Shown: positions 3,333 through 58,481 of the stretch, piece by piece
Numbering within the stretch: the first letter of the stretch is position 1
How the letters are laid out: the number at the start of each line of letters is the position of its first letter
Virus record (IMG/VR): IMGVR_UViG_3300047994_000025
Coordinates: 3,360 to 67,359 of that record
Reading direction: 5' to 3' (one strand)
DNA length: 64,000 bases
Source: a virus
The notes under the pieces: model-generated
The model's database searches: none
What the model saw: the letters and a program-made list of their open reading frames with translations, nothing else
Told to the model about the DNA's origin: nothing
Program-made: the position numbers and the translations under genes

Positions 3333-5627
3333 TTAGCGTATCCGTGGGTTCTCTTGCACTCGTTGCATACTTTGCGGTAGCTTGTGAGTGTCATAGTCGT
3401 CAAGCCCGTCGATGACCGCGTCGTACGCGATCTTCTTGATCGTTTCGTCACCGTTAGCCGAAAGATGCTGAACGATAGTCACACCGCCGCGATTGTCGTT
3501 TGCAGCGGGCGCGAAAGTCGGGGTCGACGGAACGGCGATGCGGTTGTTCGGCACGACTTGCGAGCCGCCCGGAACCTTCATCAATTCCGGACCCTTTTCA
3601 CCAACCATCTTCCAACCGCCCGACGAATACGACGTACCCGAAGCGTGACCACCGGTGATCCAACTAAACAGACCGCCGAGAATGCCGCCACCGCCGCCCG
3701 TGCCGCCCGCGTTCCACAGACCATCGAACAGACCGTCAAGCGCGGAATCAAGTAGCTTGTCGGCGATCTTTTGCAGTGCGTTCGAAGCGGCGTTCGCGAA
3801 TGATTCCCACAAGCTCTTGCCTTCGATTAGACCGTCTTTAAGGTCGGTGAAGAACCCCTTGAACGTATCCTTGCCGAAGTCATACGCGGCCTTCAAATCC
3901 TTGGTGCGCTGTTCGGCTTCCGCCATCTGTTCAGCGAGACCGTGGATTTCCTCTTTCTGTTGCTGCGTAAGCTTGATGTGCGCGTCAGCCGCCTTGTTCA
4001 GCATTTCCTGTTCGTAGCGAAGCGCGGCGGCGGCTTGCTCGGTCATGCCGATCGCTTCAGCTTCAAGGTTTTGCTGTTCGATGAACTGTTTCGAATCCCG
4101 GATGATCTTTTCGTACGGGTCTTCTTTTTCCTTCGCGCCCTTCTTCTTTTTCTTCGACAGGCGTTCGTTCATCGCTTCGACGGAATTCGCTTTCCACGCG
4201 TCGTAAAACTCGCCGAGCGGATCGGAATTTTCGATTTCGTCGTGACGCTTGTTGCGCGCATCCAACTGCGCTTTCATGTCGGCGACGATCTTGTCGGTAT
4301 TGGCGCGGTCTTCGATCTGGTAGTTCTTCGGGTCGATCATACCCAACGCATCTTGCGATGCGTCATAGCCGGGGATTTTCGACAGTACGCCGTTGATCGC
4401 CGCCGATAGCTTGTTAATGCCGTCAAGCGCATACGAAATCATTCCGTTGATTCCGTCGATCACCATGTTCGTCGCACCAGCGATACCGAGCGCGACGACA
4501 TTCGGGATTTGCTTGAAGATATATTTCAGGTCGTTGTACACATCGGTGAACGACTTAATGATCAGATTGCCCGTCGCGACCGTTGCGTCAACGATCCAAT
4601 CCCACACGGGTTTCAGTGTGTCCATGAGCGGCGAGAACGCGTCGCTGACACCGTCCTTAACGGTCTTCCAAAGACCCGACATGATGTCGCCGAATTCGAT
4701 CGACTTGTGACCAGCGTCGACAAGTTCGTTCTTCAGCTTGAAGACCGTTACGGCACCGATCGCAGCGGCGGCAGTCAACAGCGGAAACTTGGTGATCAGA
4801 CCGAGAATCATCTTGCCAGACTCGCTGAATGCGCGCCCGATACCGCCTTCGTTCGTTCCCCAAATCTGCGCGATCTGTGGTCCTTGCTGAAGAAGGACCA
4901 TCAGCGGCGGCATGCCGAGTGCGAGCGACTGACCGGTGTCGAGCAACTGAAACGACAGGTTTCGCTGTTGCCACGCAAGGTTCTTCGTGACACCCGAAGC
5001 CTTGTCGACAAGGTCGTTACTCTTGCGCATAGACGATGACGCGTTCGTGTAGCTGGCGTTAAGCTGATCGACCATCACAGACGCTTGACGCCCGTTGATG
5101 ATGTTTTGTTGCAGCGCCCGATTAATGTCGCCGAGTTCGGTTTCGTACTTCACGGATGCGGCGTAAACCGAATCGATCTTCATACGAAGCTGATCGAACG
5201 ACGACGTCGGAAGCGGCGGAACCTTCAGCTTTTCAAGCTCGGTGTTCAGCATCGACACTTGCTTTTCAAGCTCGGCAATGCGTGCCGACATAGTCGCCGT
5301 GTCAGCCGCTCCGGACGCCGCGAACTGACCCATTGCAGCGATCAGCGATTGCGTCATGCGTTCGATCGACTCTTCGGCGATCGACACCGTCGTCAGGGAT
5401 TTTGCAAGCTGAACAGCGTTGTCGTTTGCCGCGCGCATGGAAGACTGAAGCTTCGACATTGCGGCAGATGCACCGCCGAACGACATCCGACTTCCGGAGC
5501 CGCCCGACAGTGACTTGTTGAAGGATTCGAGTTCGCGGCGGGCTTGCGCAAGATCATTACGGAGCGGGGTCAAATCCCCGTGCACCGGTACGGTTAGTTC
5601 AGCTACCGTTTGACCTTGCGTCGCCAT
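3333..5627 (-). CDS. Tail tape measure protein
   Basis: 764 aa helical Ala-rich protein; NLSFQLLDTGQSLALGMPPLMVLLQQGPQI (lambda-type TMP motif); C-terminal VGEKGPEL. Confidence 0.92.
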   Translation of the reverse strand: MATQGQTVAELTVPVHGDLTPLRNDLAQARRELESFNKSLSGGSGSRMSFGGASAAMSKLQSSMRAANDNAVQLAKSLTTVSIAEESIERMTQSLIAAMGQFAASGAADTATMSARIAELEKQVSMLNTELEKLKVPPLPTSSFDQLRMKIDSVYAASVKYETELGDINRALQQNIINGRQASVMVDQLNASYTNASSSMRKSNDLVDKASGVTKNLAWQQRNLSFQLLDTGQSLALGMPPLMVLLQQGPQIAQIWGTNEGGIGRAFSESGKMILGLITKFPLLTAAAAIGAVTVFKLKNELVDAGHKSIEFGDIMSGLWKTVKDGVSDAFSPLMDTLKPVWDWIVDATVATGNLIIKSFTDVYNDLKYIFKQIPNVVALGIAGATNMVIDGINGMISYALDGINKLSAAINGVLSKIPGYDASQDALGMIDPKNYQIEDRANTDKIVADMKAQLDARNKRHDEIENSDPLGEFYDAWKANSVEAMNERLSKKKKKGAKEKEDPYEKIIRDSKQFIEQQNLEAEAIGMTEQAAAALRYEQEMLNKAADAHIKLTQQQKEEIHGLAEQMAEAEQRTKDLKAAYDFGKDTFKGFFTDLKDGLIEGKSLWESFANAASNALQKIADKLLDSALDGLFDGLWNAGGTGGGGGILGGLFSWITGGHASGTSYSSGGWKMVGEKGPELMKVPGGSQVVPNNRIAVPSTPTFAPAANDNRGGVTIVQHLSANGDETIKKIAYDAVIDGLDDYDTHKLPQSMQRVQENPRIR

Positions 5628-45536: not shown

Positions 45537-45612
45537 TGGGGAGTCGCCAAGCGGTAAGGCACCGGCTTTTGGGTCCGGCATTTCATAGGTTCGAATCCTA
45601 TCTCCCCAACCA
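45537..45612 (+). tRNA. tRNA-Gln(UUG)
   Basis: Acceptor TGGGGAG/CTCCCCA, D arm GCCAAGCGGTAAGGC, anticodon loop TT-TTG-GG, GTTCGAATC, encoded CCA. Confidence 0.92.
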
Positions 45613-50453: not shown

Positions 50454-52487
50454 ATGTCTGACGAAAGAACACTGCCGTACCCGCAAGACGTCGCGTATGA
50501 CTTGGAAATTTACCCGACCACGTTCACTTGCATTCTAGTTCACATCGAAACCGGGCGGCGGTGGATTTACGAAATTTCCGATCGGATAAACCAATCCGCC
50601 GAGCTATACGCGATGATTTACCACATGCGCGCTTGTAAAATGCGCATGGTCGGTTTCAACAACGTCGGGTTCGACTACCCGGTACTTCATGAGTTCATGC
50701 GGATTTTCGCAAGTCAAGGTATCGTTTACGCGCACCAGCTTTACGCAAAATCGTCTTCGATCATCCACAGTGAAAGCCGCTTCGGCTCCGTCATTTGGCC
50801 GCGCGACCGGTTCGTTCCGCAACTTGACCTTTACCTGATCCATCACTTCGACAACCCGGCGAAAACGACCAGTCTGAAGGCGCTGGAAATCAACATGCGA
50901 TCGTACACTGTCGAAGACCTTCCGTACGATCCGCTGTACGCCCTTCAAGACTTCCAAATTCCGAAGCTGATCAAGTACAACGCGCACGACGTTGACGAGA
51001 CCATCAAGTTCTATATGTACAGCCTGAAGGCTATCGAAACGCGAATGTCGCTGGTCGATAAGCTCGGCGAAGACGTGATCAATTACAACGACACGAAGAT
51101 CGGCAAAGAGTTCTTTATCGCCGAGCTTGAAAAGGCTGTTCCGGGGATTTGCTTCGATCGGTCGACCCGTAAGAAGGTGCCACGCCAGACGCCACGCCCG
51201 CACGGCATCAAGCTCGCCGATGTGATCTTCCCGTACGTTCAGTTTCAACACCCGGAATTGCAGCGTGTGCTTACCTACCTGAAGACGGTGACGATCACCA
51301 ACACGAAGTCGTCGGAAGAACTCAAAGACCTTCATGCGATCATCAACGGGTTCCGGTTTGACTTCGGCACGGGTGGTATTCACGGATCGGTCGAAAAGCG
51401 AATCATCCGGTCGTCGGACACACACATCATCGTTGACGCCGACGTCGCGTCCTTCTATCCGAACCTTGCGATCAAGAACGGCGTGTTCCCGGCGCACCTG
51501 TCGGCGGTGTTCTGCGAAGTCTATGCACAGCTTTACGAAACGCGTCAGAAATACCCGAAGAAGTCCGCGACGAACCTTCTGTACAAGCTGGCACTGAACG
51601 GCGTGTACGGCGACAGCAACAACGTTTACGGGCCGTTCCTTGACCCGCAATACACGATGACAATCACCGTCAACGGTCAGTTGCTTCTGTGCATGTGCGC
51701 CGAACTGATCATTGCCGAGTGCGACGCTGAAATGATCCAAGCAAATACCGATGGCTTCACGGTTCGCATCCCCCGTGACAAGCGCGCCCGGTACGATGAA
51801 ATTTGCCAATGGTGGCAAGACCTGACCAAGTTGACGCTTGAATTCGTGGACTATGAATCGATGTTCATCCGCGACGTGAATTCATATATCGCGAAGTCAA
51901 CGAAGGGTAAGATCAAGCGCGTCGGCGCGTACCAGTACGTCACGCCGGTCGATCAGGAAGCCTTTGCGGCGACACCGGAACGCGGTTGGCACCAAGACCA
52001 CAGCGCCATGATTGTACCGAAGGCGGCGGAAGCGCACATGCTGACCGGCGTCGACATCGAACAGTATATTCGCGCGCACACCGACGCGTTTGATTTCATG
52101 ATGCGCGTCAAGGTTCCGCGTTCATCAAAGCTGTTACTTGTCGATCAGGTGAACACGGTCACCGAGACCCGCGAAACTGAAACGGTGAACGGGTATGTGA
52201 TCACCGAAGACGTCGAAGTACCTGTCGAACGGCAAGTGCAGAACATTTGCCGGTACTACGTGGCGCACACGAACGACAAGCTTGTGAAGGTCATGCCACC
52301 GACCCCGAAGGCACCGGAGAAGGAACGCCGGATCGGTGTCGAAGCCGCATGGAACGTCAAGATTTGCAACACCCTTGACGAATGGGACTGGTGGAACGTC
52401 GATTACCGCTACTATGTCGAAGAGGCGAAGAAGCTGGTATTGACAGATGACACCAAACGCATCTATTACGACCTATTCGCAGCGTAA
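50454..52487 (+). CDS. Family B DNA polymerase
   Basis: Exonuclease YDLE, GFNNVGFD, YNAHDV; polymerase DADVASFYP, KLALNGVYG, NTDG. Confidence 0.92.
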   Translation: MSDERTLPYPQDVAYDLEIYPTTFTCILVHIETGRRWIYEISDRINQSAELYAMIYHMRACKMRMVGFNNVGFDYPVLHEFMRIFASQGIVYAHQLYAKSSSIIHSESRFGSVIWPRDRFVPQLDLYLIHHFDNPAKTTSLKALEINMRSYTVEDLPYDPLYALQDFQIPKLIKYNAHDVDETIKFYMYSLKAIETRMSLVDKLGEDVINYNDTKIGKEFFIAELEKAVPGICFDRSTRKKVPRQTPRPHGIKLADVIFPYVQFQHPELQRVLTYLKTVTITNTKSSEELKDLHAIINGFRFDFGTGGIHGSVEKRIIRSSDTHIIVDADVASFYPNLAIKNGVFPAHLSAVFCEVYAQLYETRQKYPKKSATNLLYKLALNGVYGDSNNVYGPFLDPQYTMTITVNGQLLLCMCAELIIAECDAEMIQANTDGFTVRIPRDKRARYDEICQWWQDLTKLTLEFVDYESMFIRDVNSYIAKSTKGKIKRVGAYQYVTPVDQEAFAATPERGWHQDHSAMIVPKAAEAHMLTGVDIEQYIRAHTDAFDFMMRVKVPRSSKLLLVDQVNTVTETRETETVNGYVITEDVEVPVERQVQNICRYYVAHTNDKLVKVMPPTPKAPEKERRIGVEAAWNVKICNTLDEWDWWNVDYRYYVEEAKKLVLTDDTKRIYYDLFAA

Positions 52488-52501
52488 CGGAGAAATGAAT
52501 T

Positions 52502-53008
52502 TTGGGTTTGCCGGGTGTTTCAGTCAAGACTTGCGCACAGTGCGGGGTTTCGAAACCACTCGGTGAATACTATAAACAGGGCGAAAACAGACGTCGTGCC
52601 GTTTGTGTAAATTGCTACGCTTCCCGTAATCAAATTATGAGAAGAAAGCACATATCGAAACGGATTTCTTACGACAGATCGCGCGGGAGTGGTTGGGAAA
52701 GAAACGGGCGCGACAAGTGGGAACTTTCGGAGCGCGACAAACATGACAAGTACCTGAAGCGAACTTATGGTATTTCGATTGAAGAATTTGAAGCGATGTT
52801 CGAAGCACAGGGTAAGGTTTGTGCGATCTGTCGGGACAACTGTAATAGAAGCACATCGGAAAGGCTTTGCGTTGATCACGACCATGTTACTGGCGAAATT
52901 CGCGGATTGCTTTGTTTCCAATGTAACGTCGGGTTAGGTAAGTTCAGGGACGACAGTCAGTTACTTGAACAAGCATCTGATTATCTTAAACGGAGTAGAA
53001 CGAAATGA
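52502..53008 (+). CDS. Endonuclease VII-family (homing-type) nuclease
   Basis: YGISIEEF..M...Q...CAIC, VDHDHVTGEIRGLLCFQCNVGLG; lower GC than neighbours. Confidence 0.9.
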   Translation: MGLPGVSVKTCAQCGVSKPLGEYYKQGENRRRAVCVNCYASRNQIMRRKHISKRISYDRSRGSGWERNGRDKWELSERDKHDKYLKRTYGISIEEFEAMFEAQGKVCAICRDNCNRSTSERLCVDHDHVTGEIRGLLCFQCNVGLGKFRDDSQLLEQASDYLKRSRTK

Positions 53009-53361
53009 GAATATACCTAGCAGGGCCGATGAGCGGTATCCCGCTTTTCAATTTTCCCGCCTTCCACAAAGCCGCCGCCGAGCTTCGCGCCGGTGGTCAT
53101 GAGGTATTCAACCCGGCTGAAGCGGATATCGAACGTTCGGGTGTCGATCCGTCTGTTCTGAACCCGGAAGGTGATCCGAACGGATCGACGTCCACAATCC
53201 CCGGCCTTTCGCGCCGTGAATGCCTTGCCGCCGATATGCAATGGATCGCCACGCACGCCGAAGCAATCGCCCTTCTTCCGGGTTGGATGAATTCAAGCGG
53301 CGCACGGGCGGAACTGGCACTTGCCGACGCACTCGGTCTGACGGTGATCCGCCTTGGTTGA
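53005..53361 (+). CDS. DUF4406 / nucleoside deoxyribosyltransferase-like protein
   Basis: RIYLAGPMSG...NFPAF...FNPAE...LPGWMNSSGARAE. Confidence 0.85.
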   Translation: MRIYLAGPMSGIPLFNFPAFHKAAAELRAGGHEVFNPAEADIERSGVDPSVLNPEGDPNGSTSTIPGLSRRECLAADMQWIATHAEAIALLPGWMNSSGARAELALADALGLTVIRLG

Positions 53362-53556
53362 ATACATCCACAGTGTCGGGAAAATGAAGCTTGATCTTCT
53401 GGCAATGATGCTGTCGAAGGGATGGCCCACGAACGCCTGTGTCGAACTCGCAAACGACTGCGTGAACGAAGGCAAGGTAAACACGTTTTGGCGCGGGAAG
53501 ATGGGCGACGAAGCCGCCGACGCGCTTGACAACGATCTGAAAAGGATGACGAAACA

Positions 53557-53883
53557 ATGACGCACACAAGCGACGGTCAGGCACGACCGAACAGCGGTAG
53601 CGCGGCGCTATCTGACGGTGAACTGTCGGCGGCGAAGGAACTAAACGATATCGTGGAACGTATCGAGCGACTCGAAGAAGAGAAGCGCACGATCGCCGAC
53701 GACATCAAGGACGTTTACGGCGAAGCGAAGGGTCGCGGGTACGACACCAAGGCCATTAAAACGCTGGTCAGGGAACGAAAGAAAGACGAAAACGAACGAC
53801 TCGAAGAAGAGTCAGTTCTGGATACGTATCGTTCCGCGCTTGAACGCCTGAAGGCCGGTCACCTTCCGGGTACGTCGCAATGA
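53557..53883 (+). CDS. GapR-like (DUF2312/UPF0335) DNA-binding protein
   Basis: [34 protein letters not shown]. Confidence 0.9.
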
Positions 53884-54179
53884 GTGTGCGCGTTTACACT
53901 CTTCTGACGGATGATCAGAAGTCGCGGCTTTCCGAACTCGCCGGTCTCGTTGATCGTTCCATGTCGTACCTGATCGCGCGCGCCATTGACGAACACGTCG
54001 CCAGCGCCACACCGTCTAACAAGACGAAGGACGACGCGCCGAACAAGTTGTTCACGCGAACGACTGTTTCGGCGGCTGTGAACGTCAAGGAACGCGCCAC
54101 GCTTACCGAATGCCACGATTGGCAGATCGTCAACGCCTGTGTCGAAAGGTATCTTCAAGATGCGCTTGATCACGTTTAA
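53880..54179 (+). CDS. Ribbon-helix-helix DNA-binding protein
   Basis: [19 protein letters not shown]...[13 protein letters not shown]. Confidence 0.7.
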
Positions 54180-54705
54180 CGGCCCGATGCAATGCGGGAA
54201 GTCGTGGGTCGTTAAGAACCTTGTTCGCCGGTTCCCCGATGTGAACTTCATCCCGGTTTCGTTTCAGGATACGTTGGCGAAGGCCACGCAAACGCTACTC
54301 GGCGTCGAACACGTTCCGTACGAAGAGTTCAAGAAGACGCAGTATTACGGGCGGACCGGGCGTCAACACATGATCGACGTGGCGACTGAAAAGCGTCGCC
54401 ACGATCCGTACTTCTTCAGTCGAGTGATGGCGGACCGCATGCGCGCGCACCCGATCATTGCCCGGAAGAAACTGTTCGTAGCCGACTCGAACGGTTTCCC
54501 GGACGAACTCGAATTCATGCGTGTTCAGATGGATATCGATCTTCTTACTTGTTCGATCGAACCACCTGATGCGCCGGAGCGCGGTTGTCAGTATCCCGGC
54601 GATTCACGCTTCAATCTTGCGCACATGTGCACGATCATTGCGAAGGATTCAACGTTGATGCTTGACGCCGTTTCGAGCGCAATTATGCGTCGCAACTGGC
54701 ATTGA
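54160..54705 (+). CDS. Deoxynucleoside monophosphate kinase-like protein
   Basis: [33 protein letters not shown]. Confidence 0.7.
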   Translation: MRLITFNGPMQCGKSWVVKNLVRRFPDVNFIPVSFQDTLAKATQTLLGVEHVPYEEFKKTQYYGRTGRQHMIDVATEKRRHDPYFFSRVMADRMRAHPIIARKKLFVADSNGFPDELEFMRVQMDIDLLTCSIEPPDAPERGCQYPGDSRFNLAHMCTIIAKDSTLMLDAVSSAIMRRNWH

Positions 54706-54734
54706 CAGCACCGCGAATCGTGCTAGTCTTTGCG

Positions 54735-55000
54735 TATTGAGACGGAACGGATCGGCGCTAAAGGTCGGTTTTAAGGTTCCGGGTCAACTACGGTGATTGA
54801 AAGATCAACTGTGACAACGGAGAAACGTCATGTAGATCGCAACGCGGGGCGCGTCGGGACCGGAAACGGACCACCTACCTTGAAACCCTACGTATTTGAC
54901 TGAAATGGAAGCGTGAAATCCCACGCGGTAAGAAGGTGTCCGACCCGTTAACCGGGTGTCATGAGCGACCTTTCAAAGACGGATTGCGATAGTCCTTACC
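54735..55000 (+). ncRNA. Candidate structured non-coding RNA
   Basis: ORF-free gap between promoter (TTGACA 54702, TGcTAGTCT 54721) and terminator (55001); nested long-range helices and two GAAA tetraloops. Confidence 0.6.
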
Positions 55001-55038
55001 AAACCCCGGACGGGTAATGCGTTCCGGGGTTTTTCTTT
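55001..55038 (+). terminator. Rho-independent terminator
   Basis: AAACCCCGGA...TCCGGGGTTT followed by a T-run. Confidence 0.85.
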
Positions 55039-55096
55039 GTTGACAGGTGACAACGAACGACATATAAACGGGTCATCGAAACACGGAGTGACTCGC

Positions 55097-55945
55097 ATGG
55101 CATACGTTCCACACCTTTTCATCGGCGTCGGCAAAGATTATCATTTCTTCACGCTCCGTGAAACGTACCTTCACACGACGTACATTCCCGGCCCGAACGG
55201 CAACGCTGTGATGAACGGCGTGTATCAGGGAACGGCACAGACCGAAGAACGGTCTTTCCATCATTTCAACCTGTCGCAAGACCCTGACGAAGCGTACGCA
55301 AAGGCAGTTGAAGCCGCCGCGAACTTCGGTCTGAAGCTGAATTGCACGCGCGAAGAACTGACGGAACAATTGCTTGATATCCAGCGCGCCACGGCTGAAC
55401 AGCTTGCACAGCGCGAAGCGGCTCGGCTGGCACAGCAAGAATTCTGGAAACAGGAACGTGAAGCGCTTCTTGCCGAGAAGATCGCGAAGACGAACACGGG
55501 CATCTTTGCATTCGGTCGTTACACCGACAAGCCGTTCGCCGACGCCGATCCGACGTATCTCGGTTGGTTGGTCGACCAGCGCTTCGACTTCGAAGAAGGT
55601 TCGTTGCCGCGTGTGACCGCCGACGCAATCCTTCGTCTTGCCGCCGATCTGTTGCCGGTGAAGCCTGACGCGAACAAGACGGTCGGCAAGGTCGGCGAGC
55701 GCATCGACGTCACCGTCACAGTGTCCCGCGTGTTCGGTTTCTGGCGTGACTCGTATTCCGGGTACGGTCAGGAACGCGTGTACATCACGACAATGGTCAC
55801 AGACGATCGCGCTTGCGTCGTTGTCAAGTCTGGTGCATTTTGCCCTGAAGTCGGCGCGATGTTCAAGCTTCGCGGCACCGTCAAGGAACATTCGGAATAC
55901 AAGGGTCAAATGCAGACCATTCTTCAACGCGTAAAGGTAATCTAA
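55097..55945 (+). CDS. Hypothetical protein with FAFGRY motif and C-terminal OB-fold-like domain
   Basis: FAFGRY...YLGWL; GKVGER...LRGTVKEHSEYKG..QTILQR; strong promoter at 55040. Confidence 0.65.
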   Translation: MAYVPHLFIGVGKDYHFFTLRETYLHTTYIPGPNGNAVMNGVYQGTAQTEERSFHHFNLSQDPDEAYAKAVEAAANFGLKLNCTREELTEQLLDIQRATAEQLAQREAARLAQQEFWKQEREALLAEKIAKTNTGIFAFGRYTDKPFADADPTYLGWLVDQRFDFEEGSLPRVTADAILRLAADLLPVKPDANKTVGKVGERIDVTVTVSRVFGFWRDSYSGYGQERVYITTMVTDDRACVVVKSGAFCPEVGAMFKLRGTVKEHSEYKGQMQTILQRVKVI

Positions 55946-56194
55946 ATGACACGCAATCTTGCAATTGAAATGTTCGTCCACCAGCAACGTAAATCGCTGT
56001 TCATGGCGTACGTGCTGTGGTTCTTCGGCATGCATCGGTTCTACCTGTTCGGGTTTTGGCGCGGGCTGATCCACATCGCCTTGTGTTGGGTGCTGATCGG
56101 GTTGATCATTCATGCGTTCGACTTCTTCACCATGTCTTGGTTGATCGACAGCCGCGACAAGAAGCTTCGCAACAGCCTGAAGGCGGTCGCGTGA
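55946..56194 (+). CDS. TM2-domain membrane protein
   Basis: RKSLFMAYVLWFFGMHRFYL. Confidence 0.8.
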   Translation: MTRNLAIEMFVHQQRKSLFMAYVLWFFGMHRFYLFGFWRGLIHIALCWVLIGLIIHAFDFFTMSWLIDSRDKKLRNSLKAVA

Positions 56195-57257
56195 TGTTTT
56201 ACGTAGGTCGCGATAACCTTCGCATGGCAGGGTTCAAGATTTTCATCGGCGTCGTTAGGCGATCCAAGGTGAACCCCGGCGAGCATAAACACAGGCTTTG
56301 CATTTCGTTGCACGCCAGTTTCAAGTTCGGTATTGTCCTGACGGTCTATACATACCCAGCGTGGCGCGACGTGCGATCCGTGGTCGAAGAATACGAACGA
56401 ACAATGGATTGGAACCTATGAACTACGGCGATCAGTTCATGACGTGTCCCATGTGCGGCGGTCTCGCCGAGTCGGATTGTGTCGACGTCGGGGTCGGGCT
56501 TTACATCGCCGGGAACTACCATTGCGGTAAATGCGATTGGGATATCGACGGGCCGGTTCAGCCGGAACTAAAAATGGACGAAAGACCGTTCGCACCGGTG
56601 GAGTCGTACGATGATTAGATATGTCGTGCTAGACGTCGACAACGACAAGCCTGTGTCGGTTTGGGCGTATCGTGATCAGGCAGAACGGAGCGCGCTTGCA
56701 TATGAACAACGAACAGGTTTCCAAACCCGAATCATCACCGAGCGTCACACACTTCGTCGGGTTCCGTGGTGAAGAATATTGGTCGGCTGTGCGGGTGTGG
56801 GGTCTGCCTCACTACGTGCACCGGGGATGGGATTTGCGGGCGCAACGGGAAATAGCCGAAGGTGACATCGTCGTGTTTGCGTTCGGCGAGCATGATCAGG
56901 AACCGCGCGTGAAGAGTTTCAACGATCTGAACGAATGACGCTTGACGGCCAAGTCTAAACAGCTTATAACCGTTGCATCAAACCAACGGAGAACAGACCG
57001 ATGACCGTCGACATTGAAAAGATCGCTTACGAAATGGCCCGTCTTATGGCTGGTGCCAATGATGACGATTGCGGCAACTTCGCACATTTCTTCCCTAATG
57101 AAGTTTACGACGATGAAGGAAACGGCCCGATCTGGAATGCGATCTGTGATCGCGCAACCGAGCTTGTTCCGACGATCGTCGTCACCCGCGAAGAGCGTAT
57201 CGCATGGGCGAAAGCGGACCGTGAATTCAACGCCTGTGAACGCGCGGAAGGGCGCTA

Positions 57258-58481
57258 TTAACCGCGCTGAACCATTTCAGGTGACAGTGTCATTCGTGAC
57301 ACTTCGCCGAACTCCCGGTGATATACGATCGCCTTGGCGTCACGCTTCGACAACCACCCGCCGCCCGCTGCGTACGAATCAGACGGCGCAAGCGTGCGGT
57401 GGCGTTCGATCTTCATCAGGTTCGAATCCTTCGCTTCGTCGTTGTGCAAATGCCCGACGTGACCGTACGAATGCGGGCAACGACCGAAGATTTCCCGGAA
57501 CATCCCGGCGAATACCGCGTCAACGTTGTTCACCTGTCGGCGGTGTCCGTGGTGATAGAACAGCGCCGTCTTGCCGAATTCGAAGACGTAGTATTCAGCC
57601 GGAGACGTGTCGACAAACACACGCGGTTCGTCTTCGTACAGCGCGGCGAGACTTTCACGAAGCCAGCCGGACGAATACGGGTCATGGTTCGCCTTCGCCA
57701 TGACGATATGCACATGCTGATGTTTTTCGAGAAGCATCCCGATCACTCGGCGAATGGTGCGAATGATCACACGGATCATCTTTTGCGGGCGACTGTCGCC
57801 GTCGACAATGTGCTTGTGCGCTGGTGTGACGGTTTCCATACTGTCGTAATGCGCAAGGTCACCGATCTGCGCGAAAACCGCTGTGTGCGCCGCTGGCGAC
57901 ATCGCAATCGCGGCACTGAACCAATCGGTCAGAAGCTTTTCGGCGATCTGCAAATCATAATCGGCGTCTTTCGTTTCTTCCGCCCATGCGAGCATACCGA
58001 AATGAAGGTCCGTCACGGTGTACTGAACGCAAAGCTGATCGTTGACGAAGCTCGGCGCGGCAATCGCCGGTACGCGCGGGATACTCGATTTGAATTCGTC
58101 AAGACCATCACGCCACGCTTGCGCGACCGGGTCTTCGACTCGAGTCTTGACCCACTTGATAATTTCCCGCCCATCTTCGCTCACCAGCGCCGACACGCCC
58201 TTGACGACATGTCCTTCGGGAACAATAAAGCCGTCGCCGCGTTCTGGCTTCTGTTGAATGAATTTACCGTTCGGACCGCTGGTCACCTGTGCGACGCGGA
58301 ACCCCGGCATGACAGGTTCGAAGCCGAGCATCCCACGTTCGGCGCACTTCTTCAGACGCCCTTGCATCGACTGCCGGGTGATACCGAGCGCGTTCGCGGC
58401 ATGTGTGACATTCTTGTTCGCGTCGTTGAACGCGGTGACGGTTTCGACCAACTGTTCGTCGGTCAGTCTTGCATTGCTCAT
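57258..58481 (-). CDS. Calcineurin-like metallophosphoesterase with N-terminal HTH
   Basis: NVTHAANALGITRQS; TDLHFG, GDLAH, ANHD, HHGH, GHLH. Confidence 0.85.
   Translation of the reverse strand: MSNARLTDEQLVETVTAFNDANKNVTHAANALGITRQSMQGRLKKCAERGMLGFEPVMPGFRVAQVTSGPNGKFIQQKPERGDGFIVPEGHVVKGVSALVSEDGREIIKWVKTRVEDPVAQAWRDGLDEFKSSIPRVPAIAAPSFVNDQLCVQYTVTDLHFGMLAWAEETKDADYDLQIAEKLLTDWFSAAIAMSPAAHTAVFAQIGDLAHYDSMETVTPAHKHIVDGDSRPQKMIRVIIRTIRRVIGMLLEKHQHVHIVMAKANHDPYSSGWLRESLAALYEDEPRVFVDTSPAEYYVFEFGKTALFYHHGHRRQVNNVDAVFAGMFREIFGRCPHSYGHVGHLHNDEAKDSNLMKIERHRTLAPSDSYAAGGGWLSKRDAKAIVYHREFGEVSRMTLSPEMVQRG

Follow-up and report, generated by a model that had tools for sequence, protein, structure and literature searches.

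Layout and conservation of the intergenic unit

The window analysed here is a stretch of 64 kb out of a 67.4-kb IMG/VR virus record (IMGVR_UViG_3300047994_000025), with an estimated completeness of 97% (CheckV). It carries a predicted noncoding RNA unit of about 300 nt (about 54736-55038), flanked by one gene of 188 aa (54139-54705) and one of 282 aa (55097-55945). The best-conserved block of this unit reads AACGGAG-N7-ATG TAG ATCGCA ACGCG GGG CGCGT, with its core at 54819-54854. This block, referred to as the start-stop module, consists of a Shine-Dalgarno (SD) word, a start codon directly followed by a stop codon, a linker, and a hairpin, and it was found in 15 instances representing about 11 independent, otherwise unrelated phage or prophage contexts. 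A first-pass annotation of the window, made from its letters and a list of its open reading frames (ORFs), had described the locus as a self-contained structured RNA gene of ~270 nt with its own promoter and terminator, no ORF, and a possible pseudoknot or switch. The features of the unit and its borders, all on the + strand, were as follows:

54702-54729, +: promoter P1, with a -35 element TTGACA (54702-07), a 16-nt spacer, and an extended -10 element TGcTAGTCT (54721-29)
54743-54813, +: variable 5′ hairpins (54743-54781 and 54789-54813), from the minimum free energy (MFE) fold
54819-54822, +: Shine-Dalgarno word GGAG within AACGGAGAA, the usual ribosome-binding site of the phage, 7 nt before the ATG
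54830-54835, +: start-stop, with ATG at 54830-32 and TAG at 54833-35
54836-54841, +: linker ATCGCA, 6 nt between the stop codon and the hairpin
54842-54854, +: module hairpin, ACGCG (54842-46), loop GGG (54847-49), and CGCGT (54850-54), beginning at +13 from the A of the ATG
54857-54908, +: middle region with a CCG-GAAA-CGG hairpin (54860-69), conserved with the IMG/VR contig L130 only
54911-54926, +: hairpin GCGTG (54911-15)/CACGC (54922-26), from alignment A2 (see below)
54927-55000, +: 3′ junction domain, closed by GGTAAG (54927-32)/CTTACC (54995-55000)
54933-54972, +: inner hairpin AAGGT (54933-37)/ACCTT (54968-72), carrying an inserted hairpin ACCCG/CGGGT (54943-57)
55001-55038, +: intrinsic terminator, with a stem at 55001-10/55023-32 and a T run to 55038
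55040-55068, +: promoter P2 of the next gene, TTGACA, 17 nt, and TATAAA, adjacent to the RNA unit but outside it

Both boundaries named in the first-pass annotation were found. In promoter P1, TTGAC and CGAATCGTG were invariant in all five aligned relatives, and the predicted transcription start lies near 54736. A dedicated scan identified P1 as the sole TTGAC plus extended -10 site in the window; it was absent from the listing of a consensus promoter scan because TAGTCT matches the -10 hexamer at only three of six positions. At the other end, the terminator scan listed a shorter stem (55008-24) plus the T run, and folding and alignment extended this stem, which covaries between the window (A-U) and L130 (G-C). 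Promoter and terminator share the same orientation in every family member. The distance between them corrects the earlier length estimate to about 300 nt. Since P2 follows directly after the terminator, and the next gene begins behind it at 55097, the region forms a separate unit and not merely a leader of that gene.

P2 belongs to a recurrent promoter family of this phage (23397, 28033(-), 30814, 34262, 55040, and 56942, also 18380(-)) with the consensus TTGAC(A/G)...GAAAC(A/G)(A/G)C(T)TATAAAC and a conserved spacer, distinct from the lone extended -10 promoter at 54702. The two promoter classes, the P1 type and the recurrent P2 type, may be used at different times.

The lack of a protein-coding frame was also confirmed. 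All ORFs within 54706-55096 were at most 53 aa long, and no + strand ORF was conserved as a protein between the window and its relatives. A minus-strand frame over the module (26-29 aa, RAPRCDLH) was considered and rejected, as its apparent conservation mirrors that of the nucleotides and is contradicted by the stem covariation. The compensatory changes in the stem would convert arginines of this frame (R to H/C and R to L/S), which argues for an RNA and against a peptide.

A comparison with Rfam, which the first-pass annotation had proposed, was made with the 4227 models of Rfam 15 at the gathering score and at E up to 10. At the gathering score, the sole match in the whole window was a tRNA (45537-45609). 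On 54600-55150 with E up to 10, the best match scored 20.8 bits (AS1890, gathering score 39), and all matches were far below threshold; no confident match to a known family was found. Eleven module-bearing loci likewise returned a tRNA as the lone Rfam 15 match. ARAGORN reported only a tRNA-Gln in the window (45537-45612) and neither a tRNA nor a tmRNA at the RNA unit, and the frame after GCA, considered as a tmRNA tag frame, was not conserved between clades. No ribozyme family (hammerhead, twister, pistol, hatchet, HDV-like) appeared among the Rfam matches at E up to 10, so nothing favours a ribozyme. With no Rfam 15, tRNA, or tmRNA match and with conservation in relatives, the description as a self-contained noncoding unit outside the known classes stood.

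The closest named relatives of the window are nine Rhizobium etli/R. phaseoli phages, among them RHph_Y60, RHph_TM3_3_9, RHEph19, RHph_Y5A, and RHph_Y21, with ~77-80% nucleotide identity over 30-46% of a 10-kb stretch. The gene upstream of the unit matches phrog_139, a deoxynucleoside monophosphate (dNMP) kinase (E 2.6e-14), and the gene downstream matches phrog_3628, a family without assigned function. A syntenic gap of ~350 nt between the dNMP-kinase-like gene and the phrog_3628 gene was present in all nine GenBank phages; it carries no annotation in the four records that were retrieved (L001-L004). The same gap occurs in L130 (also designated L124), whose downstream protein is 67% identical, and the order with the downstream phrog_3628 gene is kept in all 10 relatives (nine GenBank phages and L124/L130). 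In Pseudomonas Yuavirus and Bordetella Vojvodinavirus phages, which carry more distant homologues of that gene, the intergenic unit was not found beside it, and L125 and L126 also lack the unit. Full-length relatives of the phrog_3628 protein (55097-55945), ~47-50% identical to it, come from Pseudomonas Yuavirus, Bordetella Vojvodinavirus, and Sphaerotilus phages and are labelled 'DNA binding domain protein' in some records; its C-terminal ~90 aa also match mycobacteriophage proteins.

When the window was compared segment by segment with the other clades of the family, conservation across the gap was patchy:

Flanking genes: 64-71% identity
5′ part of the RNA: 16-20% identity
Module (54812-54856): 71-84% identity
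Middle region: 29% identity to the Y60 and Y5A clades, 71% to L130
3′ domain: 54-73% identity
Terminator plus second promoter: 65-86% identity

Four sequencing runs (X3, X4, X11, and X14, from two coded organisms A and B, with 500-830 million letters each) were compared over 54500-55200. They contain 23-48% of the sampled words of 52000-58000, which indicates that close relatives of the phage occur in those samples. Contigs from these runs showed 12 substitutions at the end of the dNMP-kinase-like gene (54547-54678). Over 54679-55068, zero substitutions were listed in the spanning contig, and one change at 54712 was found in another run. The contigs compared derive from DNA or from material of unspecified kind; among the listed runs that contain the stretch, no RNA run was found. 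A substitution-free RNA gene beside a substituted gene end may reflect selection or a recombination boundary.

The start-stop module in the window and in other phages

The sequence ACGGAG occurs at 52 sites in the window, 23 of which precede the start codon of an ORF of at least 40 aa. The module itself is present once: model R1 gave 52.6 bits at this position and at most 7.6 bits elsewhere in the window. Exactly one copy per genome was also found in all five phage records that were searched whole, four of which are complete.

Alignment of 14 module instances (A3) showed that the hairpin was paired in 70 of 70 cells and that two of its five pairs changed on both sides. The closing pair was G-C in 11 instances, A-U in two, and G-U in one, and the third pair was G-C in 11, U-A in two, and A-U in one; none of 500 shuffles reached the covariation score. 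The linker and the GGG loop were invariant in A3. Of the 15 second codons, 14 were UAG and one was UGA (L262), so that in L262 the stop was kept despite two changed letters, that is, it was retained through a double change. An SD-like word preceded the AUG by 5-8 nt in all instances, though the upstream sequence was otherwise unrelated, and its pairing energy with the anti-SD ranked among the top 0.6-8% of positions in 9 of 11 loci.

Viral, metagenome, and genome contigs were searched with a strict pattern and with relaxed versions of it. The strict pattern matched seven stretches of the viral contigs, namely L130 and six new ones (L127, L128, L129, L131, L132, and L133), and five stretches of the metagenome contigs, comprising three that duplicate viral contigs already matched, the new locus L136, and the chance match L137; the genome contigs gave zero matches. 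When ATGT was removed from the pattern, the viral contigs yielded 12 stretches, the same seven plus five coding-region matches, which belong to two sequence families without SD or ATG, about two to three chance families being expected. Leaving the second codon free returned the same seven viral stretches, with TAG in all seven; besides L262, these are the instances for which this codon was left open. Leaving the three outer stem pairs free added L151 (GCACG/CGTGC) and L152 (GCTCG/CGAGC), whose stems are perfectly complementary and which both carry an SD and ATG TAG. In the genome contigs, the relaxed stem pattern gave one true instance, L155, in a Rhizobiales isolate genome, together with three chance matches. 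All three instances found with a free outer stem (L151, L152, and L155) were perfectly paired. L262, which was found via an unrelated conserved block described below, reads GGGAGAACGGCC ATG TGA ACCGCA, followed by a GCTG...CAGC hairpin.

The matches L137, L139-L143, L153, L154, and L156 were rejected as chance matches, lying in or at the end of coding sequence without SD, ATG, or stem pairing. A first 14-mer scan (at least 118 stretches), filtered for a second motif, contained among the matches listed only the chance match L090; the four other loci that passed the combined filter were the GenBank relatives L001-L004, and no new family member was found. Neither the RNA nor the L155 leader had a match among plasmids, and GenBank phages yielded none for the L155 leader. 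A 51-nt module query returned only the nine Rhizobium phages and two weak matches at E = 1. The proteins flanking the module loci were unrelated to those of the window, save for L130 and two marginal matches.

The module was found in three layouts. In the window family, it is followed by the 3′ junction and then the terminator. In L129, L132, and L133, a terminator-like hairpin follows shortly after the module, and promoter-like sites lie upstream in L132 and L133. In L127, L128, L136, L151, L152, L155, and L262, the module opens a leader of ~200-250 nt that precedes an operon's first gene, and in L131 the distance from the module to the next gene start is ~60 nt. The downstream genes vary between the module loci, and L152 has two helix-turn-helix (HTH) repressor-like genes nearby.

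Perfect 22-nt direct repeats flank the element in L127 (at -63 and +136 from the ATG) and in L152 (at -80 and +115). Both repeats start with CGGCCAG and enclose ~200 nt with the start-stop module and a second hairpin motif. No flanking repeat was found in 13 other loci checked, L132 having only a 14-nt GC-rich repeat. The direct repeats of L127 and L152 could mark the insertion of a small mobile cassette, or they could be alternative pairing partners. In L132, a partial tRNA gene (5390-5448, - strand) lies ~400 nt from the module-plus-terminator unit, at the end of the 15.5-kb viral contig, and may indicate that an attachment site is nearby.

A hairpin of ~26 nt, TCCTG(A/G)GCA(A/T)GA(A/C)NNNAAA(A/C)NGC(T/C)C, forms the second conserved block of the leader-type relatives; it is present in L127, L128, L151, L152, L155, and L262 and was not found in the window. 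Viral contigs contained at least 128 sites of this block in at least 119 stretches (L157-L275), where about 10 were estimated by chance. The phages that carry it are very diverse, from AT-rich to GC-rich (examples are L166:796-821 and L164:259-284), and its stem covaries (GAGCA/TGCTC vs GGGCA/TGCCC). It usually lies just past a stop codon, a few bases before a tRNA gene, a DUF2800 RNA (RF02960, L164:285-445), or an SD. Nine loci examined with Rfam gave no match for the block at E up to 0.1. A theta (HDV-like) ribozyme was considered as its identity and set aside, since those ribozymes adjoin the cleavage-site side of tRNAs (PMC10879173), and the block lies 5′ of the tRNAs. Model R1 detected no further module in the 119 second-block loci listed, and an upstream start-stop was seen at only one (L262) of the 128 second-block sites listed, against 1.6 expected by chance; the second block therefore does not generally travel with the start-stop.

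The whole-RNA fold and the 3′ junction domain

Every pairing word and small hairpin quoted in the first-pass annotation was present in the window at its coordinate. The pairings comprised AAAGGTCG (54760-67) with CGACCTTT (54966-73), TTCC (54777) with GGAA (54907), GTCAA (54783) with TTGAC (54896), TACG (54789) with CGTA (54891), and GGTAAG (54927-32) with CTTACC (54995-55000), the last of which had been proposed to cross the first. Several of the small hairpins survived comparison with the relatives, but the 8-bp long-range helix (54760-67/54966-73) proved to be restricted to the window. It has no positional counterpart in L130, Y60, or Y5A; its 5′ strand lies inside a window-specific hairpin; and in all four clades the strand at 54966-73 pairs locally with AAGGY (54933-37), with U-A, C-G, and U-G variants. 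The GGTAAG/CTTACC pairing is conserved, not as the crossing helix of a pseudoknot but as a nested helix that closes the 3′ junction. The pseudoknot or switch was thus not upheld. No conserved long-range switch was found in the relatives, whose best long-range duplexes use non-homologous segments.

The claim of a structured RNA held for the helices that covary in relatives, but not for fold energy, which was no better than that of shuffled sequences. What raises the region above chance is the syntenic unit, the patchy conservation, and the covarying helices seen in the relatives. Single-sequence MFE folds of five relatives disagreed except for the 5′ hairpin, the 3′ domain, and the terminator. 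The 5′-proximal hairpin, which differs in sequence, was predicted in the window, L130, L002, and L003 and did not appear in the MFE fold of L001.

The 3′ half was examined in an alignment of four clades (A2), the statistical weight of which is modest. The proposed structure was paired in 96.7% of 122 cells, with two pairs changed on both sides, and RNAalifold independently predicted the same helices; its significance with four clades was modest, as 21-27 of 500 shuffles did as well. The GCGYG/CRCGC hairpin contains a U-A pair in the window and a C-G pair in the three other clades. The closing helix GGUAAG/CUUACC has a U-A pair that is U-G in L130, and AAGGY/RCCUU varies from U-A in the window to C-G in L130 and U-G in the Y clades. 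The hairpin inserted inside AAGGY/RCCUU occurs in the window and in L130. The junction also contains the conserved word AAAGACGGA and a 3-bp helix (GGA/TCC or GAC/GTC); AAAGACGGA and GATAGTCC lie outside the helices and were invariant in all four clades. Apart from one mismatch, the invariant GGTAAGAAGG(T/C) at 54927-54937 (A2 columns 19-29) looks like a complete Shine-Dalgarno word; it pairs with two strands that contain CCUU, and no start codon comes after it. A scan with the pattern of the 3′ domain matched L130 alone, which indicates that this domain, in contrast to the module, is specific to this phage group.

Proposed ribosome docking and alternative explanations

The interpretation we favour, with about even confidence, is that the unit would be an independently transcribed noncoding phage RNA built on a portable start-stop module for ribosome docking. 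It builds on a conserved unit with a covarying hairpin, a retained SD and stop codon, a single copy per genome, and a spread across unrelated phages. Host RNA polymerase would probably transcribe the ~300-nt RNA from its own promoter to its own terminator. The module would offer an SD followed after 5-8 nt by an AUG, with a stop codon right behind it and then, past a linker of 6 nt, a GC hairpin of 5 bp that begins at +13. A host ribosome would initiate at this AUG while the stop codon occupies the A site and the hairpin lies at the mRNA entry channel. In the ribosome, the mRNA has to be unpaired as far as about +11 or +12, counted from the first base of the P-site codon, so a hairpin that begins at +13 would abut the entry channel of an AUG-bound ribosome. 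The ribosome would dock and then be released, with neither peptide synthesis nor RNA unwinding. Docking would act on the carrier RNA, which it could protect from nucleases or Rho or whose downstream folding it could set; in this phage family, what lies downstream would be a three-way junction in which an SD-like word is sequestered. That the RNA is transcribed, binds ribosomes, and has an effect is what we infer from the sequence. Precedents are the translated start-stops of E. coli and the LEE1 leader minigene, both of which affect expression (see below).

Several observations weigh against ribosome docking. The MFE of the 306-nt stretch was ordinary (z = -0.76 on the + strand, where 25 of 100 shuffles folded as well, and z = -1.36 on the - strand). 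The SD-AUG region was not more open than average, with a mean unpaired probability of 0.44 vs 0.42 overall in 15 sequences, and SD scores were weak in 2 of 11 loci (L132 and L133, top 19-20%). Complementarity between the module and Rhizobiales 16S rRNA was no better than that of shuffles, 58% of which equalled the module and 80% of which equalled the start-stop plus linker. In addition, much of the invariance of the module was fixed by the search patterns themselves, in which the second codon, the outer three pairs of the stem, and the sequence upstream were the sole parts ever left open, and L262 is the lone instance found independently of the module pattern. The 24-nt near-identity across unrelated phages could stem from recent transfer of a small cassette and not from constraint. 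Finally, the invariant linker and GGG loop are superfluous for simple docking and hint at a specific binding partner, which keeps a protein-binding or antitermination role alive.

Such a role would be that of a protein-recognition or antitermination element of the nut/put kind, in which a protein or RNA polymerase binds the linker, the hairpin, and the GGG loop, the start-stop is secondary, and the outcome is read-through of the terminator at 55001-55038 or of the long leaders of other phages. We regard this as rather unlikely. The invariant linker and loop would suit a sequence-specific binder better than a ribosome, and the position of the module is in keeping with the idea: it lies ~70-110 nt past a promoter-like site wherever one is visible (window, L130, L132, L133, L136, and L152), at the head of an operon, within the leader of its first gene, in L127, L128, L131, L136, L151, L152, L155, and L262, beside two HTH repressor-like genes in L152, and ahead of a strong terminator in the window, with one copy per genome. 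However, antitermination leaves the retained SD and the stop kept through a double change unexplained, and no obvious boxA/boxB-like consensus was recognised at the module. In L129, L132, and L133, nothing but a terminator follows the module, the next gene of the window has its own promoter, and no candidate binding protein common to the loci was found. If the RNA were instead a trans-acting base-pairing small RNA (sRNA), it would act via AAAGACGGA or the CCUU strands, which resemble an anti-SD, and the start-stop would merely tune its stability. This, too, appears improbable to us. The unit is laid out like a classical bacterial sRNA, with a promoter of its own at one end and an intrinsic terminator plus U tail at the other; the conserved words outside the helices, AAAGACGGA and GATAGTCC, are candidate seeds; and L129, L132, and L133 are short units that run from promoter to terminator. 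Within the conserved junction, however, the CCUU strands are engaged in pairs; the only part that other phages share is the start-stop module, which is no seed-like single strand; and half of the instances sit in the leaders of genes, not in free-standing RNAs.

We consider it quite unlikely that the unit is a cis-regulatory leader or attenuator of the phrog_3628 gene, in which the 3′ junction with its sequestered SD-like GGUAAGAAGG would decide termination in a riboswitch-like manner. Module relatives are indeed gene leaders, the 3′ domain runs directly into the terminator with its SD-like word paired to two CCUU strands, and all 10 relatives have the downstream gene in the same arrangement. 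Against this, P2, a strong promoter of the recurrent class, separates the terminator from the gene, and Yuavirus and Vojvodinavirus homologues of the downstream gene are without the element. Conserved, mutually exclusive terminator/antiterminator pairings were not found in the relatives, the candidate antiterminator pairing (54760-67/54966-73) being confined to the window, and there was no match to a riboswitch family. The ordinary fold energy and the perfect 22-nt direct repeats around the element in L127 and L152 would also be compatible with sites that function as DNA, be they operators, an origin, or a small mobile cassette's scar or ends, on which the hairpins are incidental and no functional RNA is made, and the substitution-free stretch at 54679-55068 after 12 changes upstream could mark a recombination boundary. 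This explanation seems very unlikely to us. Both the module hairpin and three other helices retain their Watson-Crick pairs through compensatory changes, which an asymmetric DNA site would not need; moreover, the retention of SD and stop is strand- and frame-specific, and promoter and terminator are co-oriented in all family members.

Relation to known systems and significance

Isolated cases of start-stop mini-ORFs are known from E. coli, plants, and some viruses, where they count as curiosities. With an SD-like word at a working distance and a stop right after the start, the module would qualify as such a minimal ORF. To our knowledge, no earlier conserved family has been described in which a start-stop is fused to a covarying hairpin at a fixed distance, present once per genome, and common to otherwise unrelated phages. 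E. coli start-stops, such as those within yecJ and hslR identified by Ribo-RET, bind ribosomes and modulate expression of the carrier RNA (bioRxiv 10.1101/520783). They share with the module the SD-like word, the start codon, and the immediate stop. They sit within genes, however, form no conserved module, and are not followed by a hairpin at a fixed place. The phage module, in contrast, has an invariant linker and a covarying hairpin at +13 and resides in noncoding RNAs or leaders of unrelated phages. In the LEE1 operon of enterohaemorrhagic E. coli, a translated two-codon minigene, AUG AAA UAG, in a leader of ~170 nt is needed for full ler expression, and expression of the following gene is affected both by whether the minigene is translated and by where it lies (PMC3262186). 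A tiny UAG-ended ORF in a long leader resembles the arrangement in L127, L128, L131, L136, L151, L152, L155, and L262. The LEE1 minigene differs in having two codons, no reported conserved hairpin, and a single locus in one bacterial lineage; the window copy differs from it in turn by lying in a terminated RNA followed by a separate promoter and not in a leader.

Lambda bar minigenes combine a phage SD with a mini-ORF without protein product and act via the translation machinery. They contain two sense codons and lead to peptidyl-tRNA drop-off in Pth-deficient hosts. The module has no sense codon after its start, as the stop abuts it, and a one-codon start-stop yields no peptidyl-tRNA beyond fMet-tRNA, so the bar mechanism does not carry over. 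With classical trans-acting sRNAs, the unit shares a promoter, 100-300 nt without an ORF, and a terminator with a U tail; unlike them, its conserved core is a look-alike of a translation-initiation site and not an antisense word, and it has no match to an Rfam sRNA. Literature searches, whose coverage did not extend to supplementary motif lists, returned no description of the element or of the intergenic RNA of these phages. The finding is not categorically new, since phage small RNAs and start-stop or minigene elements both have precedents.

For the Rhizobium phage group, the unit would supply an RNA gene outside the known classes where the four retrieved records show a blank gap of ~350 nt. 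More broadly, and more tentatively than for the RNA itself, we suggest that Rhizobiales phages may share a portable ribosome-parking cassette, grafted onto the 5′ part of early noncoding RNAs and operon leaders, which is perhaps a small mobile element, as the 22-nt direct repeats occur in two phages. If so, the 70S ribosome and the release factor would be structural or regulatory partners of a noncoding RNA, a class of ribosome-engaging RNA for which neither Rfam 15 nor the literature searches yielded a description. Cultured Rhizobium etli/R. phaseoli phages (RHph_Y60, RHEph19, and their relatives) carry the unit and offer a directly testable system, which could show the effect of a parked ribosome on stability, Rho protection, folding control, or the titration of initiator tRNA or release factor. 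If the docking interpretation is true, ribosome docking without translation would be a selected function of the RNA.

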